IMG/VR virus record: IMGVR_UViG_3300046820_001896
Reading direction: 5' to 3' (one strand)
Length of the DNA: 64,000 bases
Source: a virus
Taxonomy: Duplodnaviria; Heunggongvirae; Uroviricota; Caudoviricetes
In this document: piece by piece, positions 24,139 through 59,266 of the stretch
How the letters are laid out: each line of letters starts with the position of its first letter
How positions within the stretch are numbered: the stretch's first letter is position 1
Program-made: the position numbers and the translations under genes
The notes under the pieces: model-generated
Databases searched by the model: none
What the model saw: the letters and a program-made list of their open reading frames with translations, nothing else
Told to the model about the DNA's origin: nothing

Positions 24139-24332
24139 AATCATTCCTTCATACAGAAGACATAGATCGCATCAAGGCACTGATGGAAGCCATTGATTAT
24201 GATGGTAACTTTGAGATCGAGATCGATGAATCCTCAGGCATAGGAAGGACAGTCATTGTACATGTACCATATTCAGTCAATTCATTGCGTGGTACATTTT
24301 CTTATATTATTTCAAATGTGGAGAACTGGTAA
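24132..24332 (+). CDS. hypothetical small protein
   Basis: ORF only. Confidence 0.4.
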   Translation: MVKSFLHTEDIDRIKALMEAIDYDGNFEIEIDESSGIGRTVIVHVPYSVNSLRGTFSYIISNVENW

Positions 24333-24841
24333 TGAGTAACTATGAAAAACATGCATTGATGGAATTCCGTGCTGCAGGATGGATAGATGAGAATGGTAAT
24401 TATATCGATGAGATGCAAGAGATGATTTGTCGTCATGTACTTGCATTACTTGATGTATTCGATGGTGAGGGACATAGTGGATCCTCTGCACCGTATGCTA
24501 TCAATTTATTCTCCAAACTTGCTAAGTTTGATCCTGTTGTGCCATTGACTGGTGAAGATTGGGAATGGACTGAGGTAAGCGAACGAATGGGTAGCAAGTG
24601 TTGGCAAAACAAACGATGCGGTAAGGTGTTCAAGGATGAGGATGGACGAGCATACGATATCGATGGGAAAGTTTTTTGGGAATGGAGTGGTACGAAGGAA
24701 GATCCATATAAGTCGCACTACACATGCCGAGAATCTCGTGTGTATGTCACCTTCCCATATACTCCATCGACTGAGTATGTGTATCGATACTCTGATGCCA
24801 CTCCACCTGCCCCACCACAAACAGAGCAAGGGTTACTATGA
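24332..24841 (+). CDS. hypothetical protein
   Basis: ORF; GC content visibly higher than the window average. Confidence 0.45.
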   Translation: MSNYEKHALMEFRAAGWIDENGNYIDEMQEMICRHVLALLDVFDGEGHSGSSAPYAINLFSKLAKFDPVVPLTGEDWEWTEVSERMGSKCWQNKRCGKVFKDEDGRAYDIDGKVFWEWSGTKEDPYKSHYTCRESRVYVTFPYTPSTEYVYRYSDATPPAPPQTEQGLL

Positions 24842-51003: not shown

Positions 51004-52095
51004 ATGTCTGTCATAAACGTAAGTTTAGAAGATACATTCGAACAATGGAGAATTAAGACTAATCAGCTTGGTTCTACCATTGGTGATGCAGCTTCTCTTC
51101 AAACAACTTCAACAAATTTAGTTGCAGCAATCAATGAAGTTCGCAGTAATGCGGTCGTTGATGGTATCGTCACGACTTATGGCAATATATTTCAAATTAA
51201 TATTGATGAAGGCGATTCAGCTGAATTAATATTAGATTTGGACGGTAACTTAACATTAGCTGGTGATTTAATTGCTGACGTTACAGGTAACCTAAATGGT
51301 AATGCTAATACAGCAACGAAACTTCGTAATGGTCGTATTATCTCTATTACTGGTGATGCGACATGGGATGTAGTATTTGATGGATCTGCTAATGCAACCG
51401 GTCAATTGCAAATCAATCCAACAGGTGTTGTACCAGGAACATTTACTAAAGTTACTGTTGATGGAGATGGTAGAATATATGAAGGTTTTGATTTAGAAGA
51501 TACTGATGTTATTGCTGCTCTTGGATATACACCAGTAAGTGAAGATGCAGGTTATGATAATCCAAGTTGGCTGACTTCTATTAATGGTAATAAAATTAAT
51601 AGTGCAAGCAATATTACAATTGCTAACTTAACTGTTGGAAGTAGAGTATATCTTGGAAACGGTTCTGCAACTGCTCCAAGTATCGGGTTTTCTTCTGATG
51701 CTGCTCAAGATACTGGAATTTATTGGGGTGGAGATGGTTACACTTTCTTCACCAACAATGGTGTAAAAAGCGGTGAGATTCAACCTGGCGGAAACTTAGT
51801 GATGGTTGGTAACGTTGGTGGTTATTCAGATATTCGTCTTAAAAGGGATATTGAAACTATCAAAGGCGCTCTTGATATTGTTAATCAGTTAAGAGGCATC
51901 TATTATACGTCTATAGATACTAATGAACGTAGCGTTGGTGTTGTAGCTCAAGAAGTACAAAACAAAATTCCAGAATTAATTAGAGTTGGTGAAAATGGAA
52001 TGCTTTCAGTTTCATATGGAAACATGGGAGGTCTTCTTTTACAAGCTATCAATGAATTGACAGAGAGAGTAAAAGCTATCGAAGCTAAATTATGA
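51004..52095 (+). CDS. tail fibre protein with C-terminal intramolecular chaperone (peptidase S74-like) domain
   Basis: C-terminus YSDIRLKRDIETIKGALDIVNQLRGIYY ... GVVAQEV ... LLLQAINELTERVKAIEAKL matches the auto-cleaving chaperone domain of tail fibres. Confidence 0.7.
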   Translation: MSVINVSLEDTFEQWRIKTNQLGSTIGDAASLQTTSTNLVAAINEVRSNAVVDGIVTTYGNIFQINIDEGDSAELILDLDGNLTLAGDLIADVTGNLNGNANTATKLRNGRIISITGDATWDVVFDGSANATGQLQINPTGVVPGTFTKVTVDGDGRIYEGFDLEDTDVIAALGYTPVSEDAGYDNPSWLTSINGNKINSASNITIANLTVGSRVYLGNGSATAPSIGFSSDAAQDTGIYWGGDGYTFFTNNGVKSGEIQPGGNLVMVGNVGGYSDIRLKRDIETIKGALDIVNQLRGIYYTSIDTNERSVGVVAQEVQNKIPELIRVGENGMLSVSYGNMGGLLLQAINELTERVKAIEAKL

Positions 52096-52502
52096 CTTTA
52101 CAAACAACAGGATTAATCACTCTTAGAGATATAGCAAATGAGGCTGGGCAACCAACCTCATTTTCGCCTTCCCTATCGTGGGTTAAATCAATCGTAAAAC
52201 CCGCAAATAGACTTCCAACTAATGAGATTGACGATGTCTATGGATTTGCATATTTCCAAAAAAATTCTGAAGGCAACTGTGCTAACGGAAATTGTACAGC
52301 AAATTGTAATTGTGGAAATATTCAATGTACTAACTGCGCTATTACTGGAACAGTAAATTGTACAAACTGCGATACACAAGCTTGGTTACAACCAAATTGT
52401 AATTGTGCTTGCACATATAATTGTAACCAAACACAAATTAGCTATAACTGTGCGTGTGCTTGTGCATGCGCTTGTGCTTGTGCTGATGGTGGCGGTGGAT
52501 AA
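52092..52502 (+). CDS. Cys/Asn-rich precursor-like protein (about 75-aa leader plus about 60-aa core with 22 Cys, ending CACACACACACADGGGG)
   Basis: ATGA overlap with the tail-fibre stop. The core is built from NC.NC / C.NC repeats. It lies directly upstream of the radical-SAM/SPASM gene. Confidence 0.6.
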   Translation: MTLQTTGLITLRDIANEAGQPTSFSPSLSWVKSIVKPANRLPTNEIDDVYGFAYFQKNSEGNCANGNCTANCNCGNIQCTNCAITGTVNCTNCDTQAWLQPNCNCACTYNCNQTQISYNCACACACACACADGGGG

Positions 52503-52523: not shown

Positions 52524-53957
52524 ATGATATTTGAAATTTTAGCAGAACGCAGTGAAAAAGATAGAAAAACATTTTTTTACGATAATATAAAAAATGTCTT
52601 ATCTTCAGAGGATGGTTTCATATTTAGTGTGGAAAATAAAAAAACACACAATCATATTGCTATACCATTTTCTAAAAAATCCCCATTGAAAAAATCAAAG
52701 AATATTACAAAACTAAAGATCCAAATGGGTCTTTCGTGTAACTATTCTTGCGACTATTGTTCTCAAAAGTTTGTTGGTCGTCCACCAGAAACCAATAAAA
52801 AAGACATTGATGACTTTATGAAAAAGTTAGAGGTGTTAGAATTCACAGAAGAACAAGGTTTATCAGTAGAATTTTGGGGAGGAGAGCCATTCGTTTATTG
52901 GAAAACTATGAAGCCTCTCGCAGAAGCTATTATGGAAAAGTTTTCTCATTGGAAAAATAGACCTAAGTTTTCAGTGATCACAAACGGTTCTATCTTAACA
53001 AGAGACATTTGTGCTTGGTTATATTACATGGGGTTTTATGTTTCAATTAGTCATGACGGTCCAGGGCAAAGTGTCAGAGGTCCTGATCCATTCGAAGACG
53101 AAGAAGCAAAAAAGATCGTATTAGAATTTTACAAAATAATGAAGCCACAAGGTAGAATTAGTTTTAATTCTATGCTTAATTCTAAAAATAAAAATCGGAA
53201 AGCAATTCACGAATGGTTTATCAATTTTACTGGAGATCCCGAAGTTCCTTTAGGAGAAGGTGCTTTAGTTGATGCATATGATTTAGATGGTATGAATAAT
53301 TCACTATCTACTAAAGAAGAACATTTTGAATTTAGAAGAAATTCTTTTAATGATATTAGATCGAATAATGGTTATATTGGATTTGGAACTATATTACAAA
53401 AAATAGATGGTTTTACTAATTCAGTGATGAATCAACTACCAGCTTCTGGATTAGGACAAAAGTGTGGAATGGATGATCAACATGTTTTAGCGATTGATAT
53501 GAAAGGCAATGTATTAACTTGTCAAAATGTATCTGCTGTTGAAACTGCAATGAATGGTGAATCTCATTTAGGCGGAAACTTAGATGACTACGATAATGTA
53601 GAGTTAAAATCTTCTACTCATTGGGCAAATAGAGAAGAGTGTTCAAAGTGCCCAGTTTTGCATCTATGCAAAGGTTCTTGTATGTTTTTAGATGGTCAGT
53701 TTTGGAAAACAACATGCGATAATGCTTATTCTGATAACATTTCACTTTTTGCTTTAGCATTCGAAAAGATGACATCAGGGTATATTCCATTGTACATAAA
53801 TAGTAATGAATTATCCCCAGAAAGAAAAGATATTTGGGGAACAATATTAAGCCATAAAGAAGAACCTACTAAAAAAATTATTCCTATTATTGCTGTAAGC
53901 GAAAAAACAGTATTAAATGATGTAGAAGTCTATACACAAGCAAAGGTAACACAATGA
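52524..53957 (+). CDS. radical SAM enzyme with C-terminal SPASM domain
   Basis: CNYSCDYC (Cx3Cx2C), GGEP and ITNGS motifs. SPASM Cys series CGMDD ... LTC ... CSKCPVLHLCKGSC ... C. Confidence 0.85.
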   Translation: MIFEILAERSEKDRKTFFYDNIKNVLSSEDGFIFSVENKKTHNHIAIPFSKKSPLKKSKNITKLKIQMGLSCNYSCDYCSQKFVGRPPETNKKDIDDFMKKLEVLEFTEEQGLSVEFWGGEPFVYWKTMKPLAEAIMEKFSHWKNRPKFSVITNGSILTRDICAWLYYMGFYVSISHDGPGQSVRGPDPFEDEEAKKIVLEFYKIMKPQGRISFNSMLNSKNKNRKAIHEWFINFTGDPEVPLGEGALVDAYDLDGMNNSLSTKEEHFEFRRNSFNDIRSNNGYIGFGTILQKIDGFTNSVMNQLPASGLGQKCGMDDQHVLAIDMKGNVLTCQNVSAVETAMNGESHLGGNLDDYDNVELKSSTHWANREECSKCPVLHLCKGSCMFLDGQFWKTTCDNAYSDNISLFALAFEKMTSGYIPLYINSNELSPERKDIWGTILSHKEEPTKKIIPIIAVSEKTVLNDVEVYTQAKVTQ

Positions 53958-54274
53958 TATTAATTGATGTAGAAAGTCAAAATTTGCCTGAATTAATTCG
54001 TTTATATAAGACTATTCCTTATGTTGTCCAAATAAGATGCAATAAAATATTAAGACAGCATTATAAAGATTTTGTAGGAGAAGATGGTTTGTATGTTGCA
54101 TGTTTAGTGCAGGTGAAGTCAGGCGAAGACAAATATTTAAAGTTTGAAGATATCTTATCTAAAGAGGTGTGGGATGATCCCATGCAATATCAATATTGTC
54201 TGCAGAATATGAAATTAAAAATAGATGATTACATAGAAAATGATGTTCTTCCAAAAACACCATATAGCGAGTAA
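53954..54274 (+). CDS. small protein, paralog A of tandem pair
   Basis: About 30% identity to the next ORF, including a shared C-terminal IDDYI.ND motif. ATGA overlap. Confidence 0.5.
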   Translation: MILIDVESQNLPELIRLYKTIPYVVQIRCNKILRQHYKDFVGEDGLYVACLVQVKSGEDKYLKFEDILSKEVWDDPMQYQYCLQNMKLKIDDYIENDVLPKTPYSE

Positions 54275-54276
54275 TT

Positions 54277-54573
54277 ATGGAAACACCTAATTTATTAACT
54301 TTAGTAAATCGTCTTAGACAAACTGAACATGTTACGCAAGTTAGATATCACCAAGTTTTAAAACAACGTTTTAGAGATTTAGTTGGAGTAGATGGTATTT
54401 CAATTGTATGTTTACTTACTAATAAAGCTAATCCTGAAAATTTTGTGAAAATTGTAACTATTTTAGAAGCTTCAGTAATTGAGAATTTAGAACGACATGA
54501 TGCTATCATAGAAGATATTAAAACAAGAATCGATGATTATATCATCAGAGATATAAGGCCACCAAAATTCTAA
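54277..54573 (+). CDS. small protein, paralog B of tandem pair
   Basis: Paralogous to the ORF at 53954-54274. Confidence 0.5.
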   Translation: METPNLLTLVNRLRQTEHVTQVRYHQVLKQRFRDLVGVDGISIVCLLTNKANPENFVKIVTILEASVIENLERHDAIIEDIKTRIDDYIIRDIRPPKF

Positions 54574-55307
54574 TGTTAACAGATCAAGAAATTAATGACT
54601 ATTACGATAGTCTTGTGCCAGTTATGCCAAGACCAGAAGATCGTGTCGTAGATATGTCATTTAAAAATACTAATACCAACATTCTAATATCTGCCGGTAG
54701 ATTATTAGCTGTTGCCAATTATTCTGCAAGCGTAAAAGCATTAGCAGAATTTAATAAATCTAATATTTTTACATTTCAATTAGTAGGAATGGAAGAACGT
54801 CCAAATTTATATTTTCAAAAAAATAAATGTTGGAGAATTCGTGTTACTGAAGATGGTAAAGCTTGGCAAGATTCGCCTAATATTGAATCAATCGAACAAT
54901 TATATGATTTTATTTTAATCTCTCAAAAAGCTGCAGTCTTAGATGTTATTCATCGTCGTTTAGATATGAATAGACGTAGAGAAATTAAAGCTGCACAAGG
55001 TCAAAATCACATCTATTTTGCAAAATATTTAGAAGCAAAAGAAATCCTTGAAAAAGGAATTACTGAAGATCCTATTTGTAAATATCCATTTGTTACTGGA
55101 TATGCTGATTTAGTCGGAATGGATATTGTAGAAGCATCTAAGCGCATTAAATTTAAGTATGAAACTCGTGCATCATTTTTAGCAGAAAATGAAACGCTTA
55201 GATTAAAATATACTGCATTCGTTAAACAGCAAACTACTCTGGAAGATTTAGGTGCTGTGTTAGAACAATTTAAAGCTGAAAGCACAAAGTACGGCGATTC
55301 ACTATGA
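54573..55307 (+). CDS. hypothetical protein (244 aa)
   Basis: taATG overlap. Confidence 0.5.
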   Translation: MLTDQEINDYYDSLVPVMPRPEDRVVDMSFKNTNTNILISAGRLLAVANYSASVKALAEFNKSNIFTFQLVGMEERPNLYFQKNKCWRIRVTEDGKAWQDSPNIESIEQLYDFILISQKAAVLDVIHRRLDMNRRREIKAAQGQNHIYFAKYLEAKEILEKGITEDPICKYPFVTGYADLVGMDIVEASKRIKFKYETRASFLAENETLRLKYTAFVKQQTTLEDLGAVLEQFKAESTKYGDSL

Positions 55308-56425
55308 GCACTATATTTTATAATAGTTATGATATCTTCGTAAATGAAGCATATCATGAAAAACGCAATCAAATTCCAGGTGGTCATGCATTTGGTGGTT
55401 ATTTTCAATTATTTTCTAGCAATATTACATCTATTGACAGAACGAATACATTTAGTATACCACTAAAGACTACTGTATTACCTCATCTTCAAATGCCAAA
55501 AATGAGAACATTCACTAAATCATTTAGTGATATTTGTGATGATAGAGCCATTGAATTGATGAATAAAGCTAAGACAGATAATCGTAAGATTGCGGTTATG
55601 TACAGCGGAGGAATTGATTCTACTGTTATTCTGTGTGCTTTATTAAAGAACTGCACAGAACAAGATTTAAAAAACCATGTAATTGTGCTTTTGACAGATC
55701 ATAGTATTTTAGAAAATCCTAATTTTTATAATGACTATATTATCAAAAAGTTTGAATGTGTTTCAAGTTATAGATTTCCATATTTCCTAGGGAATGATGA
55801 TTACATCGTAATTTCTGGTGAAAATGCAGATCAATTGTTTGGTTCACAAGTAGTTGCTAAATTTATTGCATATCGTTCGTTTGATTATTTGTTTACTCCA
55901 TTAGATCAAGCTGCTGGGGATATCATTGATTGGATGACTATGAAATTGCAAGATGAATATAAAAAATATGCGCCTTATTATTGGCAAATGTTTAGACATC
56001 TTTGCAATGCTGCTCCGATTCCTATTGATAACGTATATAAATTTTTCTGGTGGATTAACTTTACAAACAAATGGCAATCAGTATATGTTCGTATTTTACC
56101 ATACGCTAAAAATAGAAGTAATATTAAATTAGAAGATAATTACACTACGTTTTTCTGCCCGCAAGATTTCCAATTGTGGTCATTAAATAATCCAGATAAT
56201 CTAGTAAAAGAATCTTTAGATAATGTAAAATATATCGCAAAAGATTATATTTTAGATTTTAATGGAGATCAATCTTACTATAAAAAACCTAAGATTGGTA
56301 GCTTAACTAATATTGTGAAGCAAAAAGAAATTGTTATGTTATTAAATGATGATATGACATTTACAAATGACTACCCAGATAGTCAACACTGGAATGAAAC
56401 AAACACTTTTTCGGAGATGATGTAA
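55304..56425 (+). CDS. PP-loop ATP pyrophosphatase superfamily protein (QueC / Asn-synthetase-like adenylating enzyme)
   Basis: SGGIDS PP-loop inside IAVMYSGGIDSTVILCALL, near residue 100. Confidence 0.6.
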   Translation: MSTIFYNSYDIFVNEAYHEKRNQIPGGHAFGGYFQLFSSNITSIDRTNTFSIPLKTTVLPHLQMPKMRTFTKSFSDICDDRAIELMNKAKTDNRKIAVMYSGGIDSTVILCALLKNCTEQDLKNHVIVLLTDHSILENPNFYNDYIIKKFECVSSYRFPYFLGNDDYIVISGENADQLFGSQVVAKFIAYRSFDYLFTPLDQAAGDIIDWMTMKLQDEYKKYAPYYWQMFRHLCNAAPIPIDNVYKFFWWINFTNKWQSVYVRILPYAKNRSNIKLEDNYTTFFCPQDFQLWSLNNPDNLVKESLDNVKYIAKDYILDFNGDQSYYKKPKIGSLTNIVKQKEIVMLLNDDMTFTNDYPDSQHWNETNTFSEMM

Positions 56426-57069
56426 TGATTATTGAAAACAAGATTGATGTGCTAGATACGATGTATCCTTGTTATGCTGAAAAAGTAGTAAATGCATTAT
56501 ATCACTCTAAAGCATATTGTACATTATATGGATATATTATGTCAGGAGAAGTTACATTTCCTAATGGAAGTGTAGCTGTAGAAGGGCAATATTTTTGTTA
56601 TTGGACTGGTGAAGGTGATTCTATTAGAACTACTGGTGAAGTTTACATATTCACACGCTTTGGATTCAAAGGACAAAACACCATTGGTGGTCCAATTGAA
56701 GAAAGCGGTCGTTTAGTTTATATAGATTCTTGTTCTGATAGTTTATTGGTGTATCCTCCTAGAATGGGAGATCCATCTTTAAACTTATTACAATTTCCTT
56801 CTGCTGTCAAACAATCGTATCATATCCATCCGAGCATTAGACTTGGAGTAGTTGTAAAAGGTAAAGGATATGCTTGTATCAAAAAAGCATATGAAGAAGA
56901 ACAAATTGAATTAAAGCCAGGTGTTATGTTCTGTATAGAAGAAAGAGAACAACATCGTTTTATGACAACATACGATGAAATGACAGTTATAGCATTCCAT
57001 CCAGACGGTGATTGGGGTCCAACTGATCATAATCACACAATGTTAAACAGAACATATATTACGAAATAA
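56425..57069 (+). CDS. cupin-like protein
   Basis: Loose HIHPS ... G ... EEREQHRF pattern. Weak evidence. Confidence 0.35.
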   Translation: MIIENKIDVLDTMYPCYAEKVVNALYHSKAYCTLYGYIMSGEVTFPNGSVAVEGQYFCYWTGEGDSIRTTGEVYIFTRFGFKGQNTIGGPIEESGRLVYIDSCSDSLLVYPPRMGDPSLNLLQFPSAVKQSYHIHPSIRLGVVVKGKGYACIKKAYEEEQIELKPGVMFCIEEREQHRFMTTYDEMTVIAFHPDGDWGPTDHNHTMLNRTYITK

Positions 57070-57081
57070 TCGGAGAAAAAT

Positions 57082-57441
57082 ATGGCAGCGCCAAATATCG
57101 TTAACGTTTCAAACATTACTGGAAAAACAGCTGTAATGTTTGTTACTACATCTGCGCAAGATCTTATCACAAATCCTGCATCTAGCAATAAAGTTTTAAA
57201 ACTAAATAGTTTGACTATTGCTAACGTTAACGGAACTGCAGCTGCATCTGTGACTGTTAGTATTTTTAGAAGTTCATCAGAGTATAAACTTGCACATACT
57301 GTTTTCGTTCCAGCAAATGCTACTTTAGTTGTAGTATCAAAGGATAGTGGAATTTATTTAGAAGAAGGCGATAGTTTACGCATTGTCGGATCAGCAAATA
57401 ATTATTTGCATGCAGTATGTGGATATGAGAGCATTAGTTAA
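57082..57441 (+). CDS. beta-rich structural protein
   Basis: Strong RBS cggagaaaaat. Confidence 0.45.
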   Translation: MAAPNIVNVSNITGKTAVMFVTTSAQDLITNPASSNKVLKLNSLTIANVNGTAAASVTVSIFRSSSEYKLAHTVFVPANATLVVVSKDSGIYLEEGDSLRIVGSANNYLHAVCGYESIS

Positions 57442-58073
57442 TGTCTTTACGCAACAAAGGTAAAGCTGGTTATATTGGATACGACCGTGTTAGTAGTCCT
57501 GATGTTGGAAGCGGTATATGGAACTTAAACCAACATCACACAGCTGTATCTGATTATAGTTGGGCTGGTCAGTCTGTATACACAAACTATGATGGAAATT
57601 TAAATGGTTTTACTGTTAGCGGAGCTACTACTAGCAGTAATGCCATATATGTTCCAGGAAATAGTTATGCATATAGAGATATGATATCTCCGTTCACTAG
57701 TTTATTATTTAAAACAATGACTTTTGAAGTTTATATTAGCGGCGGAGTATGTGGTGTATTAATTGGAAGTTCTACTGCCGGTAGAGGACCTTTATTAAAA
57801 CTAGATGCACGTGGCGGCAGTAATTATAGCGGTATGATGTTCCAAACTTCTTGGACTGTTAGAGGTGATCCTCCAGTTACCGGTGTGCAATTACCAGCGA
57901 ATTCATGGGTACCTGTGCGACTAGAAGTTAATAATGCGATGCGTATTGACTGGTCTGCAAATAATAGGTATGATCGTCAACCTATTCTTTTATCTGGTCC
58001 ATTTATTACATTCCTTGGATTAGGCGGCGGCGGTTATTTTAGAAATATTAGAGTTTATAATGGTGTATCATAA
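57441..58073 (+). CDS. tail fibre-like protein with N-terminal GIWNLNQ motif
   Basis: It shares the GIW(N/H)L(N/K)Q N-terminal motif with the next gene. Confidence 0.45.
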   Translation: MSLRNKGKAGYIGYDRVSSPDVGSGIWNLNQHHTAVSDYSWAGQSVYTNYDGNLNGFTVSGATTSSNAIYVPGNSYAYRDMISPFTSLLFKTMTFEVYISGGVCGVLIGSSTAGRGPLLKLDARGGSNYSGMMFQTSWTVRGDPPVTGVQLPANSWVPVRLEVNNAMRIDWSANNRYDRQPILLSGPFITFLGLGGGGYFRNIRVYNGVS

Positions 58074-59266
58074 TGTATAACGGCGGAATATTTGGTAAAA
58101 AAAATTATCCAAACGTTTTTAATGCTAATGGTATATGGCATTTAAAACAAGTTGGGGATTTTATACATCGTGGTGAATGGTATTTTGCAAGAAGCGCAAC
58201 TGTTAATGCTACTTCATTTTTAGAAGGTGATACTATCACTGTTACAATTAATGCTCCAAGCTTACCAGACGGTACAAAACTATATTGGACTATTAATACT
58301 GTTTCAGGAACTATTCGTACAGATGATTTCGATAATCGTATTTTGAATGGTCCGCTTTCTATTATTAATGGAAAAGATACGACTAGTAGAAAATTAGAAA
58401 CAAGTAAACAAGGAGATGGTAATAGATCATTTACTATTGCTATTAGAACTGAATCTGTAGAAGGTCCAATTATTGCAACTACTCCTGTTTTAACACTAGA
58501 CGACGTAGCTCGTGGCGGTAATGCCATTTTTGATAGAGGTGGATATCGATATCATAAATTTACTTCTTCTGGTAATTTCCTTTGTAATCGTTCTCTCGGT
58601 TTAACTGTATTTGCAGTTGGCGGAGGCGGTGGCGGTGGCGGTAATGGTGGAGGTGGCGGCGGTGGCGGAGGTATCGTATATACAAATATCTCTGTTGGAG
58701 CTGGAACTTATTTTATTGGAATAGGTGGAGGAGGAAGCGCAGCTCCTAATGGTAGTGTACACGGAGGAAACGGTGGAGCTACCACATTTCAAGGATTTAT
58801 AACTGCTAATGGCGGTGGCGGTGGTGGCTCTCGAGACACAGATCGTAACGGTTATTATGGTGGTTCAGGTGGTGGTGGATCTAGTAATGGTGGAGGAGGT
58901 GGCGGTACTCCTGGCCAAGGTAATAATGGTGGTAATGGTATTATTGCTGGTTCTGGTGAAGTCCAATCTACTGGCGGTGGTGGCGGTGGATATGGCGGTG
59001 GTGGACAAAACGGTGCTGCTAAAGATGCTGGTAATGGTGGACCAGGAGGTGCATTTGATCCAACTGCCGACGGTACTGCAGAATATTATTCTGGCGGCGG
59101 AGGTGGAGGTAGAACTGTTTTCGGTACTACTGGTTCAAATGGTCAAGGGCAAGGTGTCAATAGAGGTGGAGGAGGTAAAGGCGGTTCTGGAGGATCGACT
59201 TCATTTGCTGCTCAAGCTGGAGACACAGGCTATTGTGTAATTCGTTATTTGATTCCGAGTAATTAA
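58073..59266 (+). CDS. glycine-rich tail fibre-like protein (long GGxGG tracts), N-terminal GIWHLKQ motif
   Basis: 397 aa. More than 40% Gly in the C-terminal half, encoded by ggtggcggtgg repeats. Confidence 0.55.
   Translation: MYNGGIFGKKNYPNVFNANGIWHLKQVGDFIHRGEWYFARSATVNATSFLEGDTITVTINAPSLPDGTKLYWTINTVSGTIRTDDFDNRILNGPLSIINGKDTTSRKLETSKQGDGNRSFTIAIRTESVEGPIIATTPVLTLDDVARGGNAIFDRGGYRYHKFTSSGNFLCNRSLGLTVFAVGGGGGGGGNGGGGGGGGGIVYTNISVGAGTYFIGIGGGGSAAPNGSVHGGNGGATTFQGFITANGGGGGGSRDTDRNGYYGGSGGGGSSNGGGGGGTPGQGNNGGNGIIAGSGEVQSTGGGGGGYGGGGQNGAAKDAGNGGPGGAFDPTADGTAEYYSGGGGGGRTVFGTTGSNGQGQGVNRGGGGKGGSGGSTSFAAQAGDTGYCVIRYLIPSN

Follow-up and report, generated by a model that had tools for sequence, protein, structure and literature searches.

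The hypermodified base of Synechococcus phage S-B43 is built by three phage proteins acting together, CmoA, CmoX, and CmoY (2025; PMC12783734). CmoA is a carboxy-SAM synthase, CmoX is a DNA C5-carboxymethyltransferase, and CmoY is an ATP-dependent asparagine-synthetase homolog that ligates glycine to the carboxymethyl group of 5-carboxymethylcytosine in DNA; it was only recently, with CmoY, that phage asparagine-synthetase homologs proved to be DNA-decorating ligases (PMC12783734). A literature search for phage systems that combine an AsnB-type enzyme, a cupin, and a radical SAM (rSAM) enzyme returned nothing relevant besides this report. Other synthetase domains of the AsnB superfamily suited to comparison include those of AsnB (1ct9), β-lactam synthetase (1jgt), carbapenam synthetase CarA (1q15), and the hydroxyamidotransferase TsnB9 (7ylz). 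Lasso peptide cyclases of the McjC type are likewise AsnB-like adenylating enzymes; they are much larger (about 500-600 aa), and their partners are an RRE protein and a Cys protease.

The locus described here lies in a T4-like myovirus, the genes of which in the window (the whole 64,000-nucleotide stretch of DNA that was analyzed) include gp59, gp32, a T4 baseplate protein, and a gp19-like tube protein. No close relative of this phage was found among the GenBank phages, where neither blastn with the cassette nor tblastn with the PP-loop protein and the cupin gave a match. A tightly packed same-strand run of genes ends with a gene for a PP-loop protein and then a cupin gene; these two ORFs of 373 and 214 aa are located on the plus strand exactly where the sequence-only reading had placed them. 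These two genes and those ahead of them are as follows.

51004..52095, plus strand: tail-fibre-like protein, 363 aa, given for context only (homology to a Peptidase_S74 tail fibre)
52092..52502, plus strand: Cys/Asn-rich protein, 136 aa, candidate substrate
52524..53957, plus strand: rSAM/SPASM peptide-maturase-like enzyme, 477 aa (profile matches)
53954..54573, plus strand: two tandem paralogous small proteins, 106 aa (53954-54274) and 98 aa (54277-54573)
54573..55307, plus strand: partner protein, 244 aa, a fold-orphan, translationally coupled to the PP-loop gene
55304..56425, plus strand: PP-loop protein, 373 aa, glutaminase-less asparagine-synthetase-type synthetase domain (ORF, motifs, profile alignment, model)
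56425..57069, plus strand: cupin, 214 aa (Pfam Cupin_2, conserved His)

The ATG start of the PP-loop gene overlaps the stop codon of the 244-aa gene (ATGA), and the start of the cupin gene overlaps the PP-loop stop codon (TAATG). Promoter-like and terminator-like sequences are not in excess inside the run. PADLOC, Pfam, NCBIfam, and PHROGs assign no function label to the PP-loop protein, the 244-aa protein, or the small proteins.

The SGGIDS motif that had drawn attention to the 373-aa protein occupies residues 101-106, within a YSGGIDST stretch at 100-107, and is a true family signature: Y100, S101, G102, G103, D105, S106, and T107 are invariant in 36 homologs with identity down to 39%. The same alignment shows invariant G172, E173, and D176 in a second motif, SGENADQLFGS (171-181), which is accompanied by SxxEN (134-138) and WWxNFxxKWQSxYxR (249-263); the C-terminal half of the family is distinct and has invariant WW, KWQ, and K-x-K-x-GSL motifs. 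A word search matched 487 database clusters, nearly all of them named hypothetical and lacking Pfam annotation, and an exhaustive HMMER search with the 36-sequence profile matched 1,789 clusters (50% identity), of which 715 reach an E-value of 1e-30 or lower, thus the gene is not a chance ORF. The listed members are nearly all single-domain proteins of about 360-380 aa without Pfam annotation, and their hosts comprise phages, CPR bacteria, Bdellovibrionales, Bacteroidota, and Proteobacteria.

Curated libraries recognize only the PP-loop itself in this protein, and every score stays below its cut-off: Pfam PF01171 scores 18.7 bits, PF00733 reaches 15.0 bits (cut-off 21), the NCBIfam TilS, LarE, AsnB, and CysD models give E 0.001-0.1, and TIGR01536 scores 14.8 against 267. 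A profile search of the PDB with the family likewise yielded matches of PP-loop length only. The sequence-only reading had placed the protein among QueC and Asn-synthetase-like enzymes, and profile-profile comparison separates the two: in hhalign, the PP-loop alone aligns with QueC and TilS, whereas with E. coli AsnB the SGENADQLFGS motif also pairs with SGEGSDEVFGG (AsnB 343-359). Outside the two motifs, similarity to AsnB falls below the Pfam thresholds. An AlphaFold2 model built on the family alignment (mean pLDDT 92, pTM 0.91) has the AsnB synthetase-domain fold beyond the generic PP-loop Rossmann core, and full-length structural matches in BFVD (TM up to 0.89) are uncultured phage proteins, some of them named asparagine synthase. 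Judging from the model and the short alignments, E173 and D176 probably correspond to E348 and D351 of AsnB. The protein differs from the AsnB-superfamily enzymes named above in its C-terminal half and in lacking the N-terminal Ntn glutaminase domain; it starts with MSTIF and reaches the PP-loop after about 90 family-specific residues, and the model contains no such domain. Thus, the PP-loop protein is not QueC; it belongs to the AsnB fold class as a very divergent member that lacks the glutaminase domain.

The 244-aa partner begins with an alpha/beta part, ends in a helical bundle, and has no recognizable fold or family; PDB profile searches returned nothing for it or for the small proteins, and no Cys or His is invariant in its family. 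Homologs of the PP-loop protein with 571-575 aa have an N-terminal extension, which proved not to be a fused copy of this partner, and hhalign also rejected the 128-aa third protein of Bacteroidota loci and the 160-aa one of Lewinella as short versions of it. The small proteins occur in related loci in single copy or as a fusion, always between the rSAM gene and the 244-aa gene.

The 214-aa protein is a cupin, and the pattern that had been called weakly cupin-like in the initial description deserves the name without the adverb: Pfam Cupin_2 matches with E=4e-6 and 26.9 bits, 0.3 bits short of the 27.2 cut-off, at least 686 clusters of homologs exist (mostly at least 55% identical), most of which already carry PF07883, and H133-x-H135 and H177 are invariant in 20 diverse homologs. 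The canonical metal-binding Glu position, four residues after HxH, is taken by invariant Arg139, therefore the site has three His ligands at most. The barrel with its HxH...H arrangement is common to 3-His cupins, of which cysteine dioxygenase is an example, and to cupin metalloenzymes such as acireductone dioxygenase, BacB, and ectoine synthase, from which the window protein differs by Arg139 in place of Glu, by a long conserved N-terminal extension (GRLxYIDxCSDSLLxYPPRxGDPS), and by a conserved C-terminal HPDGDWGPTDHNH tail; C103 is invariant as well. In PDB profile searches it matches acireductone dioxygenase (E 0.011) and BacB weakly, its match to the ectoine synthase profile in Pfam and NCBIfam is weak too, and it passes the threshold of no characterized cupin family.

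The 477-aa rSAM enzyme matches the PapB, QhpD, and CcpM models best, with scores that in every case lie far under the equivalog cut-off, and its match to phrog_1802 has an E-value of 1e-63. The Cys-rich proteins encoded ahead of it and in the related loci share MTLxxxGxI at the N-terminus, NCxNCD as an invariant motif, (xC)n repeats toward the C-terminus (x = A, D, or N), and a final Gly or Gly-Gly, the latter in the 136-aa protein; their Asp and C-terminal carboxylates, judged by conservation, are plausible substrates of a ligase. The 363-aa protein has an intramolecular-chaperone-like C-terminal end and is homologous to the Peptidase_S74 tail fibre that stands ahead of the same cassette in a Polynucleobacter prophage.

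Neighboring ORFs were labeled with iterated HMMs in 69 viral and 79 bacterial loci that carry the PP-loop gene. The 244-aa gene is directly upstream in 51 of the viral and 24 of the bacterial loci (the latter in CPR, Bdellovibrionales, and Burkholderiales), and a cupin gene is found nearby in 37 and 49, respectively. An rSAM gene is near the PP-loop gene in 21 viral loci and in a single bacterial one, which is the Polynucleobacter prophage. On a neighbor-joining tree, every PP-loop gene linked to both an rSAM and a Cys-rich protein falls in the clade of the window enzyme, and every assessable member of this clade has the same gene order, namely Cys-rich, rSAM, (small protein), 244, PP-loop, (cupin). 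In a 171-kb T4-like contig (Ga0480312_0000013) and also in the lambda-like prophage of Polynucleobacter sp. JS-Safj-400b-B2, the cassette stands behind an S74 tail-fibre gene; since the block is kept across morphotypes at 46-60% identity, its genes appear to be co-selected. Family-wide, the rSAM and Cys-rich genes are absent from most PP-loop/cupin loci, and in Ralstonia phage RSP15 and Achromobacter phage JWF homologs of the rSAM gene follow tail-fibre genes without PP-loop or cupin genes. The rSAM cassette and the PP-loop/cupin module are separable, and because each also occurs without the other, their adjacency could be due to hitch-hiking.

We infer the chemistry, the nitrogen donor, the cupin reaction, and the substrate as follows. 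The PP-loop protein would bind ATP at its PP-loop and adenylate a carboxylate, and an amine would then attack the acyl-adenylate to form an amide. With neither a glutaminase domain in the enzyme nor an invariant Cys or His in its 244-aa partner, glutamine would not be the nitrogen donor, which would instead be an amino compound, free ammonia, or an amine within the substrate molecule itself. The cupin would most likely serve as a metal-dependent oxygenase or isomerase on the substrate of the PP-loop enzyme. Together, the 244-aa protein, the PP-loop enzyme, and the cupin form a portable module distributed across many phages and bacteria, which in the clade of the window enzyme has joined a tail-fibre-linked cassette of Cys-rich protein, rSAM/SPASM maturase, and small proteins, and would most likely tailor the Cys-rich protein, e.g., by amidation or ligation at a conserved Asp or at the C-terminal Gly-Gly carboxylate. 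To this reading, in which a portable module of an ATP-dependent carboxylate-amine ligase and a metallo-cupin was recruited to tailor a Cys-rich tail-fibre-associated protein, we assign a probability of about 0.5. Carboxylate adenylation followed by amide formation is the mechanism with the best support, and the tailoring role beside an rSAM enzyme that had been suggested from the sequence is plausible for the window clade.

The main rival, which we consider possible and still rather unlikely, holds that the 244/PP-loop/cupin genes are an independent hypermodification module acting, in the manner of CmoY, on nucleic acid or another non-peptide substrate and merely located beside the rSAM/Cys-rich cassette. 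CmoY provides the precedent (PMC12783734): like the window enzyme, it is a phage-encoded AsnB homolog without a glutaminase domain, and relatives of the window enzyme adjoin genes for CmoA-like carboxy-SAM synthases. Such CmoA-like genes were found within 8 kb of the PP-loop gene at 11 loci (full length relative to E. coli CmoA, phmmer E 1e-13 to 3e-19), and in several of these a second methyltransferase gene adjoins the PP-loop gene. In a Pfam-annotated locus, the order is methyltransferase, CmoA-like, three unknowns, class IV aminotransferase, unknown, 244-like, PP-loop. The phage loci with CmoA-like genes constitute the sister clade of the window clade on the neighbor-joining tree, and at many phage loci the module is surrounded by DNA-metabolism and auxiliary genes (dCMP deaminase, ThyX, MazG-like, PhoH). 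The CmoA-like and methyltransferase links in the sister clade and in several bacterial loci point to a carboxymethylated, possibly nucleic-acid substrate. Several observations weigh against this rival: no CmoA-, CmoB-, or CmoX-like gene is present in the window, none of the CmoA or CmoX type was found within 8 kb to either side of the PP-loop gene at the related loci of its clade, and the rSAM and Cys-rich genes are strictly syntenic across that clade in two phage morphotypes. No CmoX-like gene was found in the 11 CmoA-like loci.

The window enzyme was also considered as CmoY itself and rejected. The CmoY-like protein of phage S-B05 has 271 aa, and the family profile aligns with it over short stretches at the PP-loop and the second motif and nothing longer; moreover, the cupin and 244-aa partners of the window family are unannotated at the S-B05 cmoA-cmoY-cmoX locus. 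The PP-loop family is a branch separate from CmoY, much larger and wholly unannotated, with approximately 1,800 clusters at 50% identity. As an analogy, the CmoY parallel supports the predicted chemistry, in which an amide ligase uses ATP and works on a carboxyl handle.

Two further explanations appear improbable. In the first, the enzyme would be a cyclase resembling lasso cyclases or β-lactam synthetase: it would adenylate a carboxylate of the Cys-rich protein, on a side chain or at the C-terminus, and join it to an amine of the same molecule, with no external amine. A lasso cyclase shares with the window enzyme the AsnB-like adenylating domain and the peptide-maturation role proposed for the window clade; however, no neighbor of the B1/B2 type was detected, as neither the small proteins nor the 244-aa protein matched a lasso-type RRE (PqqD-like) or transglutaminase-like protease in Pfam, NCBIfam, or PDB profiles. 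The missing invariant Cys and His of the 244-aa family and the frequent occurrence of the module at loci that hold no peptide candidate also argue against cyclization. The second explanation, to which we give a similarly small chance, is that of an auxiliary metabolic gene pair acting on a small metabolite, e.g., by ammonia-dependent amidation followed by oxidation or isomerization by the cupin. The Bacteroidota loci agree with it, where the genes for the cupin, the 128-aa protein, and the PP-loop enzyme stand apart as a group of three whose flanks vary, and so do CPR genomes, in which the conserved gene cluster around the 244/PP-loop pair also encodes YcaO and a SagB-like nitroreductase together with a Na:solute symporter and a phosphoribosyltransferase-propeller fusion, as well as the one homolog fused to a GNAT acyltransferase. 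The window, however, has no recognizable pathway context, and the strict Cys-rich/rSAM synteny of its clade also counts against this explanation.

An enzyme of the 7-deazaguanine (queuosine-type) DNA-modification pathway, the alternative raised in the sequence-only reading, is effectively refuted, as fold, length, motifs, and context all count against QueC identity. The PP-loop ATP-pyrophosphatase motif is the only feature in common: the QueC alignment covers just 23-24 PP-loop columns of a protein of about 230 aa, and a weak PHROG match named QueC-like is confined to residues 69-116 (E 9e-4). The window enzyme differs from QueC in size, in fold rank, and in the missing zinc-binding Cys motif; it has no Pfam PF06508 match and no CxxCxxC, and E. 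coli QueC used as a query retrieved nothing from the window. The pathway genes are missing as well, as had been remarked for this stretch: none of the queD, queE, folE, or dpdA type was found among the 39 ORFs of the window scanned with Pfam, and the same check in related phages found no que/dpd-type gene among the precomputed Pfam labels of seven related loci (L001-L007).

The enzyme class is already known, and what is new is the family, its partners, and its contexts; identification of the substrate would give a function to thousands of hypothetical proteins. The window clade could reveal enzymatic tailoring of a tail-fibre-associated Cys-rich protein, a virion chemistry so far undescribed. 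In a more far-reaching version, which we regard as speculative and on balance quite unlikely, the rSAM enzyme, the AsnB-like ligase, and the cupin would carry out a multi-step, RiPP-like post-translational maturation of a protein of the virion tail-fibre tip, in which thioether cross-links come first and the invariant Asp or the C-terminal Gly-Gly is then amidated or ligated at the expense of ATP; the target would thus be a receptor-binding component of the phage. The block would be exchanged between myoviruses and siphoviruses, and the PP-loop, cupin, and 244-aa proteins would represent a new widespread class of carboxylate-tailoring systems, the substrates of which would include peptides at one end and, at the other, molecules carboxymethylated with the help of carboxy-SAM. 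Experiments may be feasible with the prophage of Polynucleobacter sp. JS-Safj-400b-B2, since it is part of the assembly of a named strain. Searches of the window for extra PP-loop paralogs and for further CmoA-, CmoB-, QueC-, TilS-, or AsnB-like genes found none; many other phages hold additional paralogous PP-loop genes, which encode proteins of 285-345 aa.

Several features are common to the Cys-rich proteins encoded upstream of the radical SAM/SPASM maturase-like gene (rSAM): they have the motif MTLxxxGxI at the N-terminus, NCxNCD is invariant, and the sequence finishes with an (xC)n repeat, where x is A, D or N, and Gly-Gly. Some phages have this Cys-rich tail joined onto a Gly-rich protein of ~360 aa. 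The set of Cys-rich and tail-fibre genes that we compared is as follows:

Window, 52092-52502 (+): 136-aa Cys-rich protein, candidate substrate
L001, 6287-7378: locus carrying PP-loop family genes
L005, 7049-7444: further compared locus
L075, 3799-5250: rSAM-homologue locus of phage JWF
L074, 3431-4303: rSAM-homologue locus of phage RSP15

A homologous rSAM adjoins both the tail fibre of Achromobacter phage JWF and the side tail fibre of RSP15. The sequence NCNCDCNCNCSC stands immediately ahead of the Hint domain in the former, and NTNCQCGN forms the C-terminal end of the latter. In the window, a short imperfect DNA repeat at 52440-52480 codes for a CACACACACAC peptide repeat; the terminator scan called a hairpin at this position, but given its place within the coding sequence it is unlikely to act as a terminator.

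Four further window genes are the following:

53954-54274 and 54277-54573: tandem paralogous small proteins, 30% identical to each other
57441-58073: 210-aa protein downstream of the cupin gene, neighbour of the next
58073-59266: 397-aa protein with long poly-Gly tracts, downstream of the cupin gene

Most related loci have one copy of the small-protein gene, and L010 has a 214-aa fusion; family and PDB searches with the two window proteins returned no match. L001 joins the Cys-rich tail to a Gly-rich segment, so a common structural family may include the 397-aa and 210-aa proteins.

A second, shorter PP-loop subfamily (285-345 aa), which often shares loci with the main family, is found at the following positions:

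L001, 11757-12614 and 12607-13470: two copies directly 3' of the cupin gene
L019, 6826-7698
L043/L044 and L025/L026

This shorter subfamily aligns somewhat better than the main family with the 271-aa S-B05 protein, which resembles the phage amide ligase CmoY (hhalign probability 84%, 72 columns). CmoA-like (carboxy-SAM synthase-like) genes occur near PP-loop family genes in L021, L024, L032/L042, L035 and L160, as well as in L077, L083, L088, L143, L148 and L153; several of these loci also contain a second methyltransferase, and in some phage loci the CmoA-like genes are accompanied by a class IV aminotransferase and an alpha/beta hydrolase. Such loci look like an uncharacterised pathway in which carboxymethylation would be followed by amide ligation. 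In addition, the metagenomic family member P0360 (561 aa) carries a GNAT acyltransferase domain fused at its C-terminus, which hints at an amine-bearing substrate.

The enzyme island of a 115-kb viral contig (L040/L041) combines three PP-loop and three radical SAM genes with a cupin, a relative of the 244-aa protein and an NMO/IMPDH-like flavoenzyme; no Cys-rich ORF was found in this island. In CPR/Patescibacteria genomes (L078-L092), the genes for the PP-loop and 244-like proteins belong to a conserved cluster that also encodes YcaO, a SagB-like nitroreductase, a Na:solute symporter and a fusion of a phosphoribosyltransferase with a PQQ-like beta-propeller; in some of these loci there is also a protein of ~400 aa that contains about 20 Cys.

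Elsewhere in the window, the ORF at 24332-24841 strongly matches Pfam PF25185 (E 2.7e-36), the family of Tad3, which inhibits type I Thoeris.
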